A stretch of 51,087 nt of DNA from Promethearchaeota archaeon (GCA_048940645.1 JBHLOI010000023.1:1-51087); one strand, 5' to 3'. Shown: positions 1,328-42,571, counted from the stretch's first letter. The notes: a model not told the origin generated them from the sequence alone. Translations and numbers: made by a program.

Positions 1328-2197
1328 ATGACAAAGCTTGATGGAGAAGGATTCCTAGATAAACTTTATGAAGTTGTTTTCAAACTCTCGGGAATCTCAA
1401 AAACCCAATCTTATCGATTTAAAAAAGAATGGGATGAAAATTTAATACAATTAAATAAAAACCCTCATCTTGTACGTCAAATCCCTGTTGAGAAAGATAA
1501 ATTTTTACAAGATATTGAATATAGGATTAAAGTTTTAGACGAAGTAAGGCTCTCTTTTGAAGATGGTTTTCATTCCATAAAAACCTTATTAACCACTTTA
1601 TATCAATTGTATTTTAATGATTCAAAACGGTTCAAAGAAGACTTTTCGAATCATGATCAATTACTCCTAAAATATTTTGTAGCAAAAAAGATCCTTGGCG
1701 ATTTAGTGCAATATAATCAATTAGATCATGAATCAGTACCATTTAAATACAATTTGATTGCGAGAAATTATATAAGGATGAAGTTAAACGGTTTAAGAGA
1801 AAAAGAAATTCTTGAAAATTTGAAAAAGGTAAATATTGATATTACTCTACCAGGTTTACGTAAAGTTTTAAAAGAAGTCATTAAAGATGGAATTATTAAA
1901 AGAACGAAGAAAAAAAAATTAATCTATTACGTTACTAATAAGGAATTAGAATTAAGTGAAGTTGGTAATAAAAAATTCAATCAAACCCTTCGTCCTTTAG
2001 TTGAATGGCCTACCCTTTTTTGGAGAAGTTATTATAATATAAGAGAATTAAATGTTAGTGTAGAAGGAAATATTGAATATCCTGAATTCCTAAATAAGAT
2101 TTTAGAAAAAGCAGCAACTCAAGGATATATTGCATCCCATTACGTATTTAAGAATTTGGTTAAATATTATGAAAAAATAAAAGCAGACCTGAACTAA
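1328..2197 (+). CDS. hypothetical protein with a probable internal winged-helix segment
   Basis: 289-aa ORF; DITLPGLRKVLKEVIKDGIIKRTK...YYV resembles a wHTH recognition helix plus wing. Confidence 0.5.
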   Translation: MTKLDGEGFLDKLYEVVFKLSGISKTQSYRFKKEWDENLIQLNKNPHLVRQIPVEKDKFLQDIEYRIKVLDEVRLSFEDGFHSIKTLLTTLYQLYFNDSKRFKEDFSNHDQLLLKYFVAKKILGDLVQYNQLDHESVPFKYNLIARNYIRMKLNGLREKEILENLKKVNIDITLPGLRKVLKEVIKDGIIKRTKKKKLIYYVTNKELELSEVGNKKFNQTLRPLVEWPTLFWRSYYNIRELNVSVEGNIEYPEFLNKILEKAATQGYIASHYVFKNLVKYYEKIKADLN

Positions 2198-2216
2198 CTT
2201 ATTCTAAATCCTGTTT

Positions 2217-3119
2217 TTAGAAATCTTTCGTTTTTTTTATTGGAATCTCATATTCTTCTAAAATTGGAATTAAATGTTTTTTATCATCAGAATTTGTGCC
2301 CTTCCAATCTATTATGAAAAAGTTAATATCTTCAAATGTATATCGAATCATTTTTTCAATCATTTCATGATCTAAGTTTTGGATGAAATATTTTGGACAA
2401 ATAAATGACATAGCTATGTTTTTAGTTTTAATTAATCTATTAAAATTTGGAGCATAATGAGTTCCACCAAAGCCTAATCCAATTTTATTTTGACTACTTT
2501 CTTTAAATTGTATATATTTAAAAATTGTATTTACTATTGCTGATGCAATAATTTCACCTGCTTTTTTATTGGTCCATTCTGTTTTACTACTACCAAGTTC
2601 CATATAAATCAAAGGTTTTTCTAAAATTGTAGGACCATGATGAGTTACTTCGATATCTATAACAAAATTTTCTATAGATTGAATTGTAGCTTGTTCTATT
2701 AAGGAAAAAAATCCTGCCTTATGAAGTAATGCACTAGATCTAGAAAGATCTAATGGTTTTCCTCCAAATTCAACATCTTCACTCCAATTTCCTGTAGTAT
2801 GAGTTAATAGTGCTGGTCTTGCCGTCTTAGATGTATGACGACTGGCAAATATGAGAAAATCAGGATTAAAAATAGATTTATTTAGTCTTAAGTCATCCAA
2901 AAATATTAATCTCTCATCAGTCAATCCAAGATATATTCCTATATCATCAAGATATAAATTTTTATTCTGATCTATTAAAAATTTTTCTAATTTAAAAACT
3001 GGTTTTTCATTCCATTCGAAATCGACATTTTTAAATGAAAAGGACTCAGAATTTAATAACTTATCATAAATGTTCATTGAGGCAGTATCTTTGGAAGAAT
3101 GTATAATTAAAAAGTCCAT
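2217..3119 (-). CDS. dtdA: archaeal D-aminoacyl-tRNA deacylase (DTD2/GEK1 family)
   Basis: Motifs SRHTS, LTHTTGN, EVTHHGPT, ELGS, GFGGTHYAP. Confidence 0.92.
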   Translation of the reverse strand: MDFLIIHSSKDTASMNIYDKLLNSESFSFKNVDFEWNEKPVFKLEKFLIDQNKNLYLDDIGIYLGLTDERLIFLDDLRLNKSIFNPDFLIFASRHTSKTARPALLTHTTGNWSEDVEFGGKPLDLSRSSALLHKAGFFSLIEQATIQSIENFVIDIEVTHHGPTILEKPLIYMELGSSKTEWTNKKAGEIIASAIVNTIFKYIQFKESSQNKIGLGFGGTHYAPNFNRLIKTKNIAMSFICPKYFIQNLDHEMIEKMIRYTFEDINFFIIDWKGTNSDDKKHLIPILEEYEIPIKKTKDF

Positions 3120-3227
3120 AACTTTCAGTTAGTAGGTATTTTTCACATAAACTAATAATTCAAATCGTTTCAAATAAAGAAACCATAATAACAACTTTAA
3201 AAAATTATAATTAAATCATTGTATATA

Positions 3228-4190
3228 ATGTCAATTGATTTAATAACCGTTTTAATTTTATCTTTAGTATTTGGCATTCTATTTTTTGGCGCTGATTTTT
3301 ATGAACATAAACATCTTAAATTACATGTCTCATTAATAGCGGGGATTTCAGTAGCATATTTCTTCATAATTGTATTACCTGAAATAGCAGAAAAATTACC
3401 TGAATATCCTCTTCATTTAAAATTTTTAGAATATCTATTTGTTTTATTAGGTTTTTGTTTTATTCATATTAGTGAAAAATTGATATTACAAAAAGTAGAG
3501 AGTCGTTCACAAAAAAGAATGAGGAAATTACTTAAAAAAGAAAAGATTTTAGAAGCAGTTGAAAAAAATATGGAAAAAATTTTGACTGAAGAGATAAAGA
3601 AGAACGACTTAGATGAATATACTTTAAGAGAAATCGCTCAAACCTTATCAACCTTGAATCAACAAGAAGAAGATATGATTAACGAAATAGAGAAATATAA
3701 AATCAAAATTCAAAACCGAATAAATGAGGATTTATCAAAATTTCGATATCTTACTGATTATATTTATCATTTTCTGGTAGGTATTATCTTAGTAGGATTA
3801 TTATTACTTAACATTTTAGATGGAATACTCTTTTTTATATTTGCTTGGTTCAGAACAATTATTACAAACAGATCAGAAGCCCACATCATTTTTACTGATT
3901 TGGATATCTATGAAAAGCCAGAAATTGATAGAAAATCGATTAAAAAATATTTATTAGCAAGTTCAGCTCTATCTGGCATTATAATTGGATTAATTATTAA
4001 AATCTTTATCGATATTAACACTGAACTTTTATTTCTCGCATTCTCTTTTATATCGGGAATAATCTTATATATCATTGTAAGAGAAGTCATTCCTGAGAAA
4101 GAAAAAGGAGAACCTTTAAAATTTTTAATAGGGATGGTTGGATTTATTATTACAATTGTATTAATAAATCTTTTCATAAGTATCCTTTAA
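3228..4190 (+). CDS. ZIP-like membrane protein with a long coiled-coil insertion
   Basis: ZIP-like TM2 (SLIAGISVAYFFIIVLPE) and TM7 (FISGIILYIIVREVIPE). Charged helical insert after TM3. ATG at 3228 preferred over TTG at 3219. Confidence 0.6.
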   Translation: MSIDLITVLILSLVFGILFFGADFYEHKHLKLHVSLIAGISVAYFFIIVLPEIAEKLPEYPLHLKFLEYLFVLLGFCFIHISEKLILQKVESRSQKRMRKLLKKEKILEAVEKNMEKILTEEIKKNDLDEYTLREIAQTLSTLNQQEEDMINEIEKYKIKIQNRINEDLSKFRYLTDYIYHFLVGIILVGLLLLNILDGILFFIFAWFRTIITNRSEAHIIFTDLDIYEKPEIDRKSIKKYLLASSALSGIIIGLIIKIFIDINTELLFLAFSFISGIILYIIVREVIPEKEKGEPLKFLIGMVGFIITIVLINLFISIL

Positions 4191-35739: not shown

Positions 35740-38127
35740 TTAAATTTCAAAATGATATTTATTTTCTCTTTCTACAGGATATCCCTTTCTTTGCCAAACT
35801 CTCATCCCACCTGATAAGTTTCTTACATCTCTATAGCCTTCTCTTACTAATAGTTGGGCAGCCATCATTGATCTTCCACCAACAGCACATAATACTACAA
35901 TTTCTTTGTCCTTATATTCATTTAATAAATCTACATTACGTATTAATTTTCCTAAAGGAATTAATTTCGCATCTTTAATATTACCCACATTATGGTATTC
36001 TTGTGGTTCTCTTACATCTACTATTATTGCAGGACAATCGTCTGTACCTAATCTATCAAAAAGTTCATCAACACTGATTTCTGACAACGCAGGGGCGTCT
36101 TGGGTTCTTAATTCCGCTCTAGTTTTCTTCCTAACTTTAATTGGAGCTTTAAGTTCATCCGAAGTTACTTCACCCTTTTCAAGAATTGCAACTAGTTTTC
36201 CTTCTTCTTTTCCTAGCTTTAGTAGATTTACACTTTCATTTAGCTTCACATAAGCTTCTACGCTAGATTTAAATCCTGGATCTGTTGCATAAATTTTTAG
36301 TTTTTTACCTTGAGATAGATTTTCAAGCCCTTGTATAAGTGCATTTAATGGGCCTGGACATGAAATACCACACGCATCAACTTCCATAAGTTCATCGATT
36401 TCAAAAGTTTTTCTATCAATCATTTCTTCGATGACTTCTTCTGGTGGTCCACAAGCTTCGGCAATTTCTTGTGTAGTGGCAGCTGCAGTCTTAAATAGTT
36501 TATATCCCCCAGTAAGGTTATAAACACTATTAAAACCTTTTTGTACCAATAATCTTGTTGTTAAATACCCTCTAAACCCAACCTCACAAAACACATAAAT
36601 ATCTTTATCTTTTGGTATTTCATTTAATCTATTTCTCAACTCTAAATCATTAATATTTACAGCATTTTCTATACTTCCAACTGCATATTCTTCTGGAGTT
36701 CTGACATCAAGAAGGAAACTATTATTTTGTTGTATTTCTGGCAAATCTTCCCAATGCCATATGGGATGATCGCCTTTGATAACGTTTGCCCCAACAAATC
36801 CTGCCATATTCACAGGATCTTTTGCCGAACCAAATGGAGGCGCATAAGTAAGTTCTAACTCTTCTAAATCAAATACTGTTCCACCAAACTTTATTACAGT
36901 TGAAATTACATCTATACGTTTTTCTGTACCTGAACCTCCAACTGCTTGAGCTCCTAAGATTTTTCCAGTAGGAACTTCAAACAGTAACTTTAAAGTGATT
37001 GGAGTGGCTCCAGGATAATAACCAGCATGGTTATTTGGATGCACATATATTTTTTCATATTTTATATCTGTATTCTTTAGTTGTTTTTCACTTAATCCTA
37101 CAAATGAAACTGTTAGATCAAAAACTTTTAAAACAGAAGCTCCTAAAACGCCTTTATATTTAGAAAATCTTCCAGCAATGTTATCAGCTGCGATTCTTCC
37201 TTGCTTATTTGCAGGACCTGCTAAAGGAATCGCTGTTGGTTCATTTGTGACAAAATTTTTAGTCTGAACTGCATCTCCCACAGCGAAAATATAAGGATCT
37301 GAAGTCCGCATATTTTCATCTACAACTATGTGTCCTTTTGGTCCGAGTTTTAAACCTGCATCTTTTGCTAACTTATTTTCAGGTTTTACTCCAATAGTTA
37401 AGATAACAATGTCAGTTTTAACTTTTTTACCGCTCTTTGGTATCACATAATTACATTTATTCTGATCACATTCAAATGAATCTACAGCATCTCCTAATTG
37501 AAGGCATACCCCGTTTAAAATTAATTCTTGATGTACAAATTGAGCCATCTCTTTATCTAATGGTGCCAGCACTTGATCCAGCATTTCAACTATTTTGACT
37601 CTAATTCCTCTTTCTTTCAAGTTTTCAGCCATCTCTAAACCGATATATCCACCCCCAATTATAGTGGCATGTTTCACTTCATTTTTCTCGGCGAACTCTC
37701 TTATTTTCACAGAATCTGGAATTGTTCTAAGTGTAAAACTTGGTACTTCTTCCAATCCTTTAAATGGGGGAACTATTGGAGATGCACCAGGAGAGAGTAT
37801 TAAGTAATCGTATTCTAAACTATATTCTTTATCAATTTCAAGATTTTTAATATTTACAGTCTTTTCTTCCTTATTAATTGATAATACTTCATGATTTACC
37901 CTCACATCAATATTAAATCTATCGAAAAAATCTTCAGGAGTCATCAGTTCTAACTGTTCACGTTCTTTAATCACATTTCCTACATAATAAGGTAAACCAC
38001 AATTTGCAAATGAAACATAAAGGCCCTTTTCAAGAACAATTATCTCGAAATCCTCCCTTAACCTTCTTAAACGAGCTGCTGCAGAAGCGCCTCCAGCAAC
38101 TCCACCAATAATTACAACTCTTTGCAT
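35740..38127 (-). CDS. CoA-disulfide/persulfide reductase fused to rhodanese, TusA and a second rhodanese
   Basis: GGVAGG, SFANCGLPY, YAPPF; rhodanese FCEVGFR; TusA DACGISCPGP; rhodanese LCAVGGRS. Confidence 0.92.
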   Translation of the reverse strand: MQRVVIIGGVAGGASAAARLRRLREDFEIIVLEKGLYVSFANCGLPYYVGNVIKEREQLELMTPEDFFDRFNIDVRVNHEVLSINKEEKTVNIKNLEIDKEYSLEYDYLILSPGASPIVPPFKGLEEVPSFTLRTIPDSVKIREFAEKNEVKHATIIGGGYIGLEMAENLKERGIRVKIVEMLDQVLAPLDKEMAQFVHQELILNGVCLQLGDAVDSFECDQNKCNYVIPKSGKKVKTDIVILTIGVKPENKLAKDAGLKLGPKGHIVVDENMRTSDPYIFAVGDAVQTKNFVTNEPTAIPLAGPANKQGRIAADNIAGRFSKYKGVLGASVLKVFDLTVSFVGLSEKQLKNTDIKYEKIYVHPNNHAGYYPGATPITLKLLFEVPTGKILGAQAVGGSGTEKRIDVISTVIKFGGTVFDLEELELTYAPPFGSAKDPVNMAGFVGANVIKGDHPIWHWEDLPEIQQNNSFLLDVRTPEEYAVGSIENAVNINDLELRNRLNEIPKDKDIYVFCEVGFRGYLTTRLLVQKGFNSVYNLTGGYKLFKTAAATTQEIAEACGPPEEVIEEMIDRKTFEIDELMEVDACGISCPGPLNALIQGLENLSQGKKLKIYATDPGFKSSVEAYVKLNESVNLLKLGKEEGKLVAILEKGEVTSDELKAPIKVRKKTRAELRTQDAPALSEISVDELFDRLGTDDCPAIIVDVREPQEYHNVGNIKDAKLIPLGKLIRNVDLLNEYKDKEIVVLCAVGGRSMMAAQLLVREGYRDVRNLSGGMRVWQRKGYPVERENKYHFEI

Positions 38128-38403: not shown

Positions 38404-39564
38404 TTGAAGAAAAAGATAATTATAATAGCATTGTTATCCATAATTATAATTTCAGCACTGACATTTTCTATTATTTGGTATTTGAATTCAAATACAAAAA
38501 AAATATTTGGTTATGATATAGAACTGGCTTTTCCGAATCTTACATTTATAAATCCTGTAGGAATTTATTCACCAAATGATGGTTCGAATCGTTTATTTAT
38601 CTTGGAACAAGGAGGCAGGATTTTTTCTTTTAACAATAATTACACTGTGCAGCAAAAAAATCTATTTCTTGATATATCTGATCTTATTATTACTGGAGGT
38701 GAAAGGGGATTATTAGGCTTAGCTTTCCACCCTAACTTTTCTCAGAATGGATATTTCTATTTAGATTATACAGATACTAATGGAGATACAGTAGTTTCTC
38801 GTTTTCAGGTGAATTCAGGTAATAAAAATTTTGCAAATAAATCTAGTGAATATATTTTATTAAATGTAGAACAACCCTATTCGAATCATAATGGAGGACA
38901 GATAGCATTCGGACCAGATGGGTATTTATATATAGCTTTAGGAGATGGAGGTTCAGCTGGAGATCCACTGGGAAATGGTCAAAATCGAAATACATTACTA
39001 GGATCAATTTTACGAATTGATGTTGATTCAGCTACACCTTATGCAATTCCTAGTGATAATCCTTTTTTTGGAAATTTAAATGGTTATAGGGAGGAAATTT
39101 ACGCTTTTGGTTTACGAAACCCATGGCGTTTTAGTTTTGATCCTATTACTGGTAATCTTTGGGCAGGAGATGTAGGACAGAGCGCATGGGAAGAGATTGA
39201 TATAATTGAGAGTGGAAATAATTATGGATGGAGTGCAATGGAAGGAAATCACCCATATTCTCCTGGTATCAATGTTACAAAAGTAGAACCTCCAATATAT
39301 GAATATGGACATAATATTGGACATTCCATTACTGGAGGATTTGTTTACCGCGGTTTTAAATTACCAGAATTATATGGTAAATATATATATGGCGATTATG
39401 AATATGGTCAGGTATGGGCATTAAAGTATGATGGATTAAATCCAAGTAATAATTCAATTTTAGTTGATACAACTCTAGAAATAACTTCATTTGGTTTAGA
39501 TGCTAATTATGAAATCTTTTTTTGTGCTTTCAACGGTAAAATTTATACAATTAAAAAAATTTAG
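38404..39564 (+). CDS. glucose/sorbosone (PQQ-type) dehydrogenase family beta-propeller, membrane anchored
   Basis: GERGLLGLAFHP, NHNGG..FGPDG.LY...GDGG, GLRNPWR.SFD, NYGW. Confidence 0.9.
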   Translation: MKKKIIIIALLSIIIISALTFSIIWYLNSNTKKIFGYDIELAFPNLTFINPVGIYSPNDGSNRLFILEQGGRIFSFNNNYTVQQKNLFLDISDLIITGGERGLLGLAFHPNFSQNGYFYLDYTDTNGDTVVSRFQVNSGNKNFANKSSEYILLNVEQPYSNHNGGQIAFGPDGYLYIALGDGGSAGDPLGNGQNRNTLLGSILRIDVDSATPYAIPSDNPFFGNLNGYREEIYAFGLRNPWRFSFDPITGNLWAGDVGQSAWEEIDIIESGNNYGWSAMEGNHPYSPGINVTKVEPPIYEYGHNIGHSITGGFVYRGFKLPELYGKYIYGDYEYGQVWALKYDGLNPSNNSILVDTTLEITSFGLDANYEIFFCAFNGKIYTIKKI

Positions 39565-39686: not shown

Positions 39687-40481
39687 TTAATTTTCTAAAT
39701 AAATTACAGTATCAATAAAAAGTTCATAATTCTCATCCTCATCAAAGTCATGAATTACTGCCTTTTCTACATCATCAGTCCCTTTTACTTCAAGTAATTC
39801 TGATTCATATAGTATTTTAATGTCTGAAAGTTTTAACTTTTTCTTTAGTTCTTCTGATCCAGGTATATTTTTAGCTGAAGTTAATACAATGACTCTTCCT
39901 GTATATTTTGTTAATTCCAGAGCAAGTTCAAGCGATTTATCCCCTGTATCTAAAATTAAAACTCTTTTGTCTTTAAATTTAAATAAATCTTTTACTTCTC
40001 TATAAACTCCTTTTCCAATAAAATCTTCTAAACCAAGAATGACTTTAATATCAGGTACACTACAAGAAGCTGCAACTTCAACTTCAGAAGTAGTACCAAG
40101 TCTATAATTATCGATTGCGGCTTTTAATGCGTCAGAAGCTAAATTAGAGCAATGCATTTTAATTGGTGGTAATCCTTCTAACTCATCAGCAACATCGGTT
40201 CTGGTAATTTTATAAGCATCTTCTACCTTCATACCCTTTGCCATTTCTGTTGTCATTGAAGATGTTGCAACCGCAGAACCACAACCAAAAGTTCTAAATT
40301 TAATATCTTCAATAATTTCATCTCCATCTTCGTTTTTACCAATTTTTAAAAACATTTCCATCAAATCTCCACATACAGGATTGCCTACTTTTCCATACCC
40401 ATCCGGATTTTCGATTACACCTACATTTCTTGGGTTTCTAAAATGATCTAGAACTTTTTCAGAATATTGAGTTGATTTCAA
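39687..40481 (-). CDS. iscU: IscU/NifU-type Fe-S scaffold fused to a degenerate TrxB NADPH-binding domain
   Basis: YS..V.DHF.NPRN, GNPVCGD, FGCGSA, LPPIKMHCS; C-terminal ~120 aa align by eye with the central domain of the window's TrxB. Confidence 0.88.
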   Translation of the reverse strand: MKSTQYSEKVLDHFRNPRNVGVIENPDGYGKVGNPVCGDLMEMFLKIGKNEDGDEIIEDIKFRTFGCGSAVATSSMTTEMAKGMKVEDAYKITRTDVADELEGLPPIKMHCSNLASDALKAAIDNYRLGTTSEVEVAASCSVPDIKVILGLEDFIGKGVYREVKDLFKFKDKRVLILDTGDKSLELALELTKYTGRVIVLTSAKNIPGSEELKKKLKLSDIKILYESELLEVKGTDDVEKAVIHDFDEDENYELFIDTVIYLEN

Positions 40482-40485
40482 TCTT

Positions 40486-41676
40486 TTATTTCACCTCTTT
40501 ATATTGTTTTAATAATTCAGGAGGAGTTAAAGGAGACATTATTCTTAATCTTTTTACTGCTCCAGGTATTACCTCAATTAATTTGTTAATGTCAGTTTCT
40601 TTTGTTGTTCTTCCCAAAGAAACTAAAAGACTACCATGTGCCTCTTCATGTAATAAGCCCATCGCTATTAAGGTATGTGAAGGTTCTAAGGTTTTAGAAG
40701 AACATGCAGAACCAGTAGCAGCAGCAATTCTATGTGCTTTTAACTCCAAAATTAATGATTCTCCTTCAATGTAATCAAATCTAAAATGAGCATTATTGGC
40801 CAGCCGCCTTTCTGGATGACCATTTAAATGGGAATTTGGTATTATTTCAAGCACTTCACTGATTAATTTATCTCTTAATCCTTTAAGATATTCGACTTCT
40901 TTTGGCATTTCATTTTTTGTAATTTCAGTAGCTTTAGCAAATCCAACAATACCTGGTATATTTTCAGAACCTGATCTGAAACCTCTTTCTTGACCTCCTC
41001 CTATAATAATCGGATTAACTCTCACTCCTTTTTTCAAATATAGGGCTCCAACTCCACGCGGCCCATAAATATCGTTCGAGGATAAGGTGAGTAAATCAAC
41101 AGGTATTTTTTGAACATCAATGGGTATTACACTCTCACTCGCAACAGCATCAGTATGTAATAAAATCTTGCGTTCTTGAGCGATTTTACTTATTTCATCA
41201 ATAGGTTGGATTGAACCTACTTCATTACTTGCTGTAGAGATAGAAATTAAAATAGTGTCTTCCTTAATTAACTTTTTTAATTTATCTAATTTTACAACAC
41301 CATAAGTATCAACAGGAACTCTATTTACTGTGAATCCTAATTTTTCTAAATTTTTACTAATATTTAGAATTGAAATATGCTCAATCTCAGAAATAATGAT
41401 ATGATTCCCCTTTCTTTTATAAAAGTTAGCAGCACCTATTAGTGCTAAGTTATTCGATTCTGTTGCACCCGATGTAAAAATAATATCTGATGGATTCGGA
41501 GCATTTATAAAATCTGCTACTTTCTCCCTTGACTTGTCTAAAATGTCAGTGGCTATATCGCCATCAGCATGTAAAGAAGCAGGGTTCGCAAATTTATCTC
41601 TAAAGTATGGCAACATTTCTGAGATAACTCTTTCATCCACAGGCTTAGCTGCTTGGTTATCTAAATATATGCTCAC
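40486..41676 (-). CDS. iscS: IscS-like protein lacking the PLP Schiff-base lysine
   Basis: FTSGATESNN, GGGQE.G.RSG.EN, GSACSS present; SSNDIYGP replaces SxHKxxGP; AGGAGG SD before GTG start. Confidence 0.9.
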   Translation of the reverse strand: MSIYLDNQAAKPVDERVISEMLPYFRDKFANPASLHADGDIATDILDKSREKVADFINAPNPSDIIFTSGATESNNLALIGAANFYKRKGNHIIISEIEHISILNISKNLEKLGFTVNRVPVDTYGVVKLDKLKKLIKEDTILISISTASNEVGSIQPIDEISKIAQERKILLHTDAVASESVIPIDVQKIPVDLLTLSSNDIYGPRGVGALYLKKGVRVNPIIIGGGQERGFRSGSENIPGIVGFAKATEITKNEMPKEVEYLKGLRDKLISEVLEIIPNSHLNGHPERRLANNAHFRFDYIEGESLILELKAHRIAAATGSACSSKTLEPSHTLIAMGLLHEEAHGSLLVSLGRTTKETDINKLIEVIPGAVKRLRIMSPLTPPELLKQYKEVK

Positions 41677-41735
41677 AATTAAAATCCTCCTAAACTTTCA
41701 ATTAATTTAATATAATTTAATAATTTTTATCATAT

Positions 41736-42095
41736 TTAAAACCATTGAGTAGCATCTGCTTCTAGTACTAAATCATTTAAAGTAGCTGCACCTACGATTT
41801 TCGCTCCAGGAATTAAATCAACTTTATCCCAGCCTAGCATCCTTTTTGATGCTTCGCACACTAAGATTTCAACACCCATATCGAGTGATTTATCTATCAT
41901 CTCTTTAACTGTAGGAAACTCCCCAACTTGAATATTTTCTGCTACGCCAGGTTTTAAAATTTTTAAACCCATTCCGAGATAATATACTGTTGCCTTAATA
42001 TCCATTGCTCTAGCTGTTTGTGCTAAAACTAAAGGCGAGTATTGTCTCTCTGGGGCATCAGTTGTTTGAACATACAAAATGTATTTTTCTTCCAT
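41736..42095 (-). CDS. DsrE/DsrF-like sulfur relay protein
   Basis: LA..A.AM...A.VYY...G, GVEILVCEAS, GAKIVGAAT. Confidence 0.85.
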   Translation of the reverse strand: MEEKYILYVQTTDAPERQYSPLVLAQTARAMDIKATVYYLGMGLKILKPGVAENIQVGEFPTVKEMIDKSLDMGVEILVCEASKRMLGWDKVDLIPGAKIVGAATLNDLVLEADATQWF

Positions 42096-42111: not shown

Positions 42112-42351
42112 TTACTTTTTTCTAAAATAAAATATCAAATCTTCTCCTTCTCTATGAAATTCAACTAATTCAGTATCTGTTCTTTTTGCCCATCTCTTTA
42201 AATCCTCTTCGGCAGCTGGATCATCTGCCAATACTTTGAAGCATACTCCACTCTCCAATGTTTCTGAAAAATTTCTAACTTCAAATAAAGGTTCAGGGCA
42301 ATATAAACCTCTGGTATCTAACTCATAATCATATTTTATTTCTTGTGTCAA
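42112..42351 (-). CDS. tusA: TusA/SirA family sulfur carrier
   Basis: LDTRGLYCPEP, VLADDPAA.ED..RW. Start placed at TTG 42351, 8 nt after an AGGTGA SD. Confidence 0.9.
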   Translation of the reverse strand: MTQEIKYDYELDTRGLYCPEPLFEVRNFSETLESGVCFKVLADDPAAEEDLKRWAKRTDTELVEFHREGEDLIFYFRKK

Positions 42352-42571
42352 ATTATATATCACCTTCAAAATACAGATTAATTACTAAATTCAATATATT
42401 TACAGTTTCTTACACAATTAAATATTCACATTATAATTTAGTAGAAAAGAATAAGTACTATAAACAGAAAGTAATGTATCTACTAAACAACCTTTATAAA
42501 ATATAAATTATGTAAAAATTTGCTCATATACCAATTTAAAACTAAAGAATAAGAAATATCGTTTTTTCTTT

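Follow-up and report, generated by a model that had tools for sequence, protein, structure and literature searches.

A stretch of 51,087 nucleotides from a Promethearchaeota archaeon (GCA_048940645.1 JBHLOI010000023.1:1-51087), hereafter the window, carries on its minus strand, at positions 40486..41676, a gene (iscS*, misS-like) for a 396-aa homolog of type I cysteine desulfurases that lacks the PLP lysine, as identified by its open reading frame, by Pfam (Aminotran_5) and by its match to structure 4EB5. We estimate at roughly 75% the probability that this gene encodes an archaeal IscS/MisS protein without catalytic activity, of the A. fulgidus IscS2 type, and that this protein serves as a partner of IscU rather than as a desulfurase. 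IscS proteins with a Lys-to-Asp replacement are known already from A. fulgidus, where they were reportedly described in 2012-2014, and from M. acetivorans; what is new here is an Asgard member, with no new mechanism, and the value of the present analysis lies in a clade-wide signature, a census of Asgard genomes and a contrast in TusA neighbours, and not in the substitution as such.

The reading frame of iscS* is open over all 396 codons and is preceded by the Shine-Dalgarno sequence AGGAGG (41686..41691, minus strand), 9 nt 5' of the GTG start at 41676-41674, in agreement with an original prediction, made from the sequence alone, of a full-length ORF with a strong Shine-Dalgarno sequence. Pfam Aminotran_5 is matched over its full length (1-371 of 371, 252.6 bits), which, together with the full-length match to 4EB5, assigns IscS* to the type I (IscS/NifS-like) class V aminotransferase fold. 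When IscS* is aligned by MAFFT to IscS of E. coli K-12 (reference from NC_000913.3; 44% identity), Asp202 (GAT, 41071..41073, minus strand) is placed opposite the Schiff-base Lys206, Asn201 (the codon just before, 41074-41076) opposite His205, Ala179 of the motif HTDAVA (41140..41142) opposite Gln183, Leu351 (40624..40626) opposite Arg354, Ser237 opposite Thr243, and Cys325 (TGT, 40702..40704) of the mobile loop GSACSS opposite Cys328, while Thr76, His104, Asp180 and Ser203 are invariant in this pairwise comparison. In E. coli IscS, residues of this active site provide the Schiff base, ring stacking, the contacts to N1, O3' and phosphate, the binding of the substrate carboxylate (by Arg354) and the nucleophile. 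HMMER alignments to solved K-type (lysine-bearing) enzymes agree in these placements of Asp202, Asn201, Ala179 and Cys325, and neither these nor the MAFFT alignment with E. coli IscS reveal an alternative Lys in or near the SxHK-equivalent motif, which reads LSSNDIYGP; in the alignment to the A. fulgidus structure, Asp202 is paired with Asp199. The prediction that the codon at 41073-41071 puts Asp at the lysine site of SxHK, that HTDAVQ has become HTDAVA and that GSACSS is intact is thus borne out in each part. Of the traits of catalytic desulfurases, IscS* lacks the SxHK lysine (SSND instead) as well as Gln183 and Arg354 (Ala179 and Leu351 instead), and it scores under every NCBIfam desulfurase cut-off, including those of NifS (TIGR03402, 462.8 vs 530.75) and IscS (TIGR02006, 396.6 vs 643.2). 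A contig from a DNA run that may be the source sample itself (X1 record 4, 40808-41512) shows 0 differences to the window over the Asp202 codon.

The best match of IscS* in the PDB is A. fulgidus IscS2 (4EB5, 4EB7 and 4HVK; E 8e-133, 446 bits), which has the identical motif SSNDIYGP, followed by 4R5F, the D199K variant of the A. fulgidus protein, with K-type structures at 354 bits or less; the matches also include the IscS-TusA structure 3LVJ. A. fulgidus IscS is without desulfurase activity and binds PMP, not PLP (PMC8918507; PMC7585200). The original prediction had stated that the substitution abolishes desulfurase activity in this protein; the protein is indeed inactive, but other causes must contribute, as the D199K variant is likewise inactive, and with PMP bound it is not free of cofactor (PMC8918507). 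The accompanying claim, that a Cys of the A. fulgidus protein is a ligand of the [2Fe-2S] cluster on IscU, holds for the crystal of IscS with IscU(D35A) (PMC8918507; PMC7585200; PMC13066941). The cofactor state of A. fulgidus IscS is unsettled, with PMP found in the free protein and PLP modelled in the IscU complex, and the sulfur source of this lysine-less IscS-IscU pair has been called an open question (PMC8918507). A second reported lysine-less protein, M. acetivorans IscS1, was insoluble and is uncharacterised (PMC7585200). With regard to the eukaryotic host lineage, for which the prediction had suggested a relevance, PDB scores against NFS1 and E. coli IscS were equal both for IscS* (about 310 vs 313 bits) and for the K-type paralog encoded in the same genome (370 vs 367 bits); neither paralog favours NFS1 over E. 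coli IscS, these scores suggest no special Asgard-NFS1 tie in IscS*, and the suggestion is retained only as a remark on context.

With one genome scanned for each species, 80 loci were obtained, about 75 of them from Asgard MAGs with 62-94% identity to IscS*; at the Lys position, the 75 Asgard orthologs have Asp (69) or Glu (6), and all have the Cys loop. Nei-Gojobori dN/dS of IscS* was 0.12 against its nearest orthologs and had a median of 0.095 among 51 pairs, as compared to 0.06-0.10 for the Lys-bearing paralog; purifying selection on IscS* is strong and similar to that on the catalytic paralog. Among the best 150 50%-identity representatives listed from a search of 1.84 billion proteins, 16 are without Lys and are concentrated among the closest matches, with Odinarchaeum and Aenigmatarchaeota as named clusters, and the best 120 protein matches listed are all near-identical Asgard orthologs. 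A FastTree phylogeny of 288 sequences places 81, including IscS*, in one all-lysine-less clade (support 0.998), in which the motif is ND or NE in 73 members, NS in 4, SD in 2, GP in 1 and SA in 1, with lysine in 0/81. This clade was recovered with IQ-TREE from 85 rows (UFBoot 100, SH-aLRT 97; present in 100% of 200 bootstrap trees), and 31 of 32 lysine-less rows still formed one clade (SH-aLRT 98) after five trait columns had been removed; the exception, the long-branched row P0137, strayed in the quick tree without trait columns, and a tree constrained to hold all 32 together was likelier (AU p 0.98). As judged from these trees, the lysine-less clade has a single origin; to judge from the 446-bit match and the common signature, A. 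fulgidus IscS2 would belong in it too.

Comparison of alignment columns between the 81 clade members and 187 K-type sequences (186, with the outgroup omitted, for the count of conserved columns) identified 79 columns that are conserved at 85% or more among K-type sequences; 49 of these are kept in the lysine-less clade and four are replaced, i.e., q11 (E. coli Thr13), Gln183, Lys206 and Arg354. Specifically, q11 is mostly K, V or S (Lys in 41/81; the remaining members have V, S or R), the Gln183 column has Ala in 76/81 clade members as compared to Gln in 163/187 K-type sequences, the Lys206 column has Asp in 74/81, and the Arg354 column has Q, L, E or V as the four most frequent residues listed, Arg not being one of them, as compared to Arg in 165/187 K-type sequences; in addition, Asn occupies the His205 column in 77/81. 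By contrast, Thr76, His104 and Asp180 are kept in 81/81 members, and Ser203 and the loop Cys in 80/81 each. This signature fits a protein that has lost catalysis but has kept the Cys loop and a pocket that would hold the cofactor. The identical motif in and top match to the A. fulgidus structure (4EB5), the purifying selection and the all-lysine-less clade together support the proposal, also made in the original prediction, that an Asgard lineage has maintained a pseudoenzyme of the same type as A. fulgidus IscS. The 12-residue C-terminal tail TPPELLKQYKEVK of IscS* (residues 384-396) occurs in about 12-16 of the 81 clade members, all of them from the family-level group of the window. Independent losses of the lysine were also observed outside the ND clade, in Asgard families f5, f7, f22, f24 and f26 (our family codes) and in representatives beyond these; in the census, they occur at loci L168, L173, L176, L199, L202-L204, L207, L208, L191 and L210, with the motifs NR, SR, HH, HR, HV, HL, HA and SP, and no TusA was found beside the independent-loss IscS-like gene at L263, the one such locus examined.

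iscS* is the third gene in the order tusA-dsrE-iscS*-iscU, all on the minus strand and separated by gaps of 16 nt, 59 nt and 4 nt. The first gene (42112..42369) encodes an 85-aa TusA (E 1e-17) with Cys24 in the motif CPEP, and the second (41736..42095) a 119-aa DsrE-like sulfur carrier (DsrE/DrsE_2) with Cys80 in VCEAS. The fourth (39687..40481) encodes a 264-aa IscU (NifU_N, E 8e-46; NifU_clost TIGR03419, 190.7 bits) that is fused to a Pyr_redox/TrxR-like C-terminal domain (Pyr_redox, E 5e-4) and has a ligand set of three Cys, an Asp and a His, which appear in translation as VCGD, GCGS and HCS; as shown here, iscS* is translationally coupled to an intact IscU. Further downstream on the same strand (35740..38127), Pfam identifies a 795-aa fusion of a CoA-disulfide-reductase-like (CoADR) domain, a rhodanese, a TusA and a second rhodanese domain. 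This fusion gene lies 3' of iscU in most close relatives (~200 nt after iscU in the closest ones, at L009-L011), and the glucose/sorbosone dehydrogenase (GSDH) gene that Pfam identifies between the two in the window (38404-39564, plus strand) looks like an insertion specific to the window's genome. Almost all of the 80 orthologous loci have TusA and the fused IscU, and about half have DsrE; the Cys of each carrier is invariant (CPEP of TusA in 67/67, VCEAS of DsrE in 35/35). An IscU gene lies within a few bases of iscS* in the window and at almost every other locus, with the f13 loci showing TusA-DsrE-IscS* without an adjoining IscU. The C-terminal domain of IscU is present also in f2, f7 and other relatives in which IscS* is without the C-terminal extension, and at two loci (L239 in G058 of f16 and L241 in G038 of f19) the IscU beside the lysine-less IscS is part of a much longer ORF of 448-527 aa, which at L241 also matches the CoADR model. 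In the sediment metatranscriptome X20, short contigs cover parts of iscU, iscS* and dsrE, and one of these spans the iscS*/iscU junction with 92% identity; contigs from an RNA library are no proof of transcription, and no meaning attaches to the uncovered stretches.

To compare neighbourhoods, HMMs built from the orthologous-locus sets were run on 4-kb flanks. TusA flanks 17/20 lysine-less loci (families f3, f7, f12, f13 and f19; absent in f16 and f18), as compared to 0/20 K-type loci from 13 family codes and, with 1.5-kb flanks, 0/23 K-type loci. Among the five genomes with both paralogs (G000, G027, G038, G041 and G103; the lysine-less locus of G000 is the window), four have TusA next to the lysine-less gene and not next to the K-type gene, and G041 (f16) has it next to neither. 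As these genomes are related and not independent samples, the contrast is to be read as a lead and not as a statistical result.

The canonical, K-type paralog in the window's genome (contig C54, 99544-100728) encodes 395 aa with HTDAVQ, SAHKLYGP and GSACSS, and just passes the NifS cut-off (TIGR03402, 531.8 vs 530.75). Its best PDB match is A. fulgidus IscS2 (399 bits), which agrees with the placement, at weak support, of the K-type clade that holds it as the sister of the lysine-less clade. A SufB-like (SUFBD_core) gene (C54:104117-104776) is found at a distance of 3.4 kb, a single-domain IscU is encoded 9 kb off on the same contig, and this region with its K-type, SufB-like and IscU genes may be a second Fe-S locus. 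On contig C11 (50610-52130), a 653-aa SufS-like protein is encoded (ORF 1345-3306, minus strand, of the fetched locus L003); it has an extra N-terminal segment of ~220 aa that also matches Aminotran_5, the motif GHKLYAP, and an unusual GCFCAH at the position of the type II Cys motif, which in type II desulfurases is GHHCA-like. IscU-like genes in this genome number five. A search of the genome for canonical IscS or SufS, named in the original prediction as a check, thus found a Lys-bearing NifS/IscS, a SufS-like and a SufB-like gene, so that the organism is not dependent on the lysine-less protein for sulfur from cysteine, nor restricted to cysteine-independent sulfur.

Taken with the A. fulgidus data, these features indicate that the most likely role of IscS* would be that of a structural and cysteine-donating partner of the scaffold IscU. 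As suggested by the A. fulgidus structures and assays, IscS* would not desulfurate cysteine; it would probably hold, by non-covalent contacts, a cofactor of the pyridoxal type (in A. fulgidus, PMP), the amine of PMP possibly pairing with Asp202, a contact that we infer ourselves, and it would form an (IscS*-IscU)2 complex in which the nascent [2Fe-2S] cluster would have, by analogy to A. fulgidus, Cys325 as its fourth ligand. Sulfur might reach this complex as sulfide or, as the gene neighbourhood would suggest, as a persulfide on the co-encoded TusA or DsrE, a flow that would reverse the IscS-to-TusA transfer of E. coli; the CoADR-rhodanese-TusA-rhodanese enzyme may load or reduce the TusA/DsrE persulfide. 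Because TusA, often with DsrE, flanks 17/20 lysine-less as compared to 0/20 K-type loci, the neighbourhood points to such a sulfur relay. Several considerations weigh in the other direction, among them the absence of TusA beside the gene in f16 and f18, the unsettled cofactor state of A. fulgidus IscS and the weakness of the RNA evidence. The cluster-ligand role would extend to IscS* from one IscU D35A crystal structure of another organism; cysteine-derived sulfur could reach the fused IscU from the canonical paralog, since the genome has NifS/IscS, SufS-like, SufB-like and five IscU-like genes; and E. coli TusA functions in tRNA thiolation and Moco synthesis, not in Fe-S assembly, which counts against a relay to IscU. 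The wider proposal, that the lysine-less clade is an old Fe-S branch of single origin without its own desulfuration, in which persulfide would pass from TusA/DsrE over the Cys loop to IscU, and which would be the only IscS-type system in several Asgard families, is offered tentatively, as a possibility with the odds against it.

The constancy of TusA also bears on a different role, in which IscS* would act as an adaptor or relay of TusA/DsrE sulfur for thiolation (tRNA 2-thiouridine, molybdopterin or thiamine) and not for Fe-S assembly. TusA is the most constant neighbour of iscS*, E. coli TusA receives sulfur from IscS for tRNA and Moco, and the f13 loci have TusA-DsrE-IscS* with no IscU adjoining; we nevertheless regard this role as unlikely, given that iscU follows a few bases 3' of iscS* in the window and nearly all other loci and that the solved homolog is a cluster-holding complex with IscU. 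Alternatively, IscS* could have taken on another, PMP- or Asp-dependent chemistry, as in PMP enzymes with a replaced lysine, for which the binding of PMP by A. fulgidus IscS (PMC8918507), the specific conservation of Asp (74/81) and the kept cofactor pocket could be cited. The same position is also E, S, A or P within the clade, which argues against a catalytic Asp, and the substrate-binding Arg is gone; such a change of chemistry therefore seems quite improbable.

That IscS* is still a working cysteine desulfurase, using another residue or non-covalently bound PLP, would accord with the conservation of the ring- and phosphate-binding residues and of the nucleophilic Cys, with the Lys at q11 in 41/81 clade members and with the public annotation as cysteine desulfurases. 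This reading is highly improbable, however, as four active-site positions, including the Arg354 equivalent, are altered together, IscS* falls below all NCBIfam desulfurase cut-offs, and the q11 Lys is not only variable but also present in A. fulgidus IscS2, which is inactive even as the D199K variant (PMC8918507). Finally, that the gene is a pseudogene in decay, or that the missing lysine reflects a mistake in sequencing or assembly, is a reading to which we assign virtually no probability; it is refuted by the open frame with its strong Shine-Dalgarno sequence, a dN/dS of about 0.1, the conservation of an identical motif in dozens of independent assemblies and the matching codon in the contig of the DNA run, which may be the source sample. 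The reading that we prefer thus remains that of a non-catalytic partner of IscU.

The distribution of such proteins was surveyed in 121 Asgard genomes of the phylum, searched with the window genome's K-type paralog; these are incomplete MAGs, and SufS-type enzymes fall outside the counts. At least 54/121 genomes, from 10 family codes (f1, f2, f4, f7, f10, f12, f13, f16, f18 and f19), were confirmed to have the ND type. It was the sole IscS-type match (E 1e-40 or better) in 33/121 of these incomplete MAGs, SufS-type enzymes uncounted; among the 33 are 9 f7 genomes, every f13 genome and all 16 of the f12 genomes that gave a match. Odinarchaeum yellowstonii has a derived NS variant with about 51% identity to IscS* of the window. 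Some database labels among the relatives are conspicuous: a contig labelled 'Candidatus Odinarchaeota' (among L009, L075 and L088) has a gene 94% identical to iscS*, and contigs labelled Nanopelagicaceae and Deferrimicrobium hold the Asgard-type operon with 80% and 64% identity, respectively; the MAG labels at these three loci look wrong, with mis-binning the likely cause.

Public annotation labels the lysine-less relatives of IscS* cysteine desulfurases. Because the sole IscS-type match is lysine-less in 33/121 genomes, such automatic labels overstate the cysteine-dependent Fe-S capacity of Asgard genomes, a caution that matters for any deduction from annotations about Fe-S pathways in the host lineage of eukaryotes. 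In the papers searched on Asgard Fe-S biogenesis, we found no mention of a lysine-less IscS, and one 2026 paper reports NFS1 only as 'Asgard-associated'; none of the papers searched combines TusA, DsrE, IscS and IscU as a sulfur relay. With regard to the sulfur source, called open for A. fulgidus (PMC8918507), the clade, its four-position signature and the specificity of the TusA neighbourhood provide a concrete donor to test. If the tentative proposal of a relay branch of single origin were true, part of the archaeal lineage nearest to eukaryotes would build IscU clusters from environmental or relayed sulfur.

Among known systems, IscS* is closest to A. fulgidus IscS2 (AF0564; 4EB5, 4EB7 and 4HVK, with D199K as 4R5F), to which it is ~58-60% identical over 380 residues, as estimated from the printed alignment. 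The two have in common SSNDIYGP, HxDAxA, Leu at the Arg354 position, Lys at q11 and GSACSS, as well as IscU as partner; Asp202 aligns with A. fulgidus Asp199, and the equivalent of Cys325 is A. fulgidus Cys321. Unlike in the A. fulgidus pair, the Asgard IscU has an extra reductase-like C-terminal domain; the Asgard protein is encoded in an operon with TusA and DsrE near the CoADR-rhodanese fusion, and its C-terminal tail of 12 residues was seen in no other family. In M. acetivorans, the lysine-less IscS1 is found beside a functional IscS2-IscU2 pair (PMC7585200), a coexistence of lysine-less and functional proteins that is also seen in the window's genome. With the canonical type I desulfurases (E. 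coli IscS, 1P3W; human NFS1; NifS), IscS* shares the fold, the length, the Cys loop and Thr76, His104, Asp180 and Ser203, but it is without the equivalents of Lys206, His205, Gln183 and Arg354 and stays under the NCBIfam cut-offs. Compared with the K-type paralog of its own genome (contig C54), IscS* is ~51% identical, and it has TusA and DsrE as neighbours, which were beside none of the K-type genes at the loci examined.
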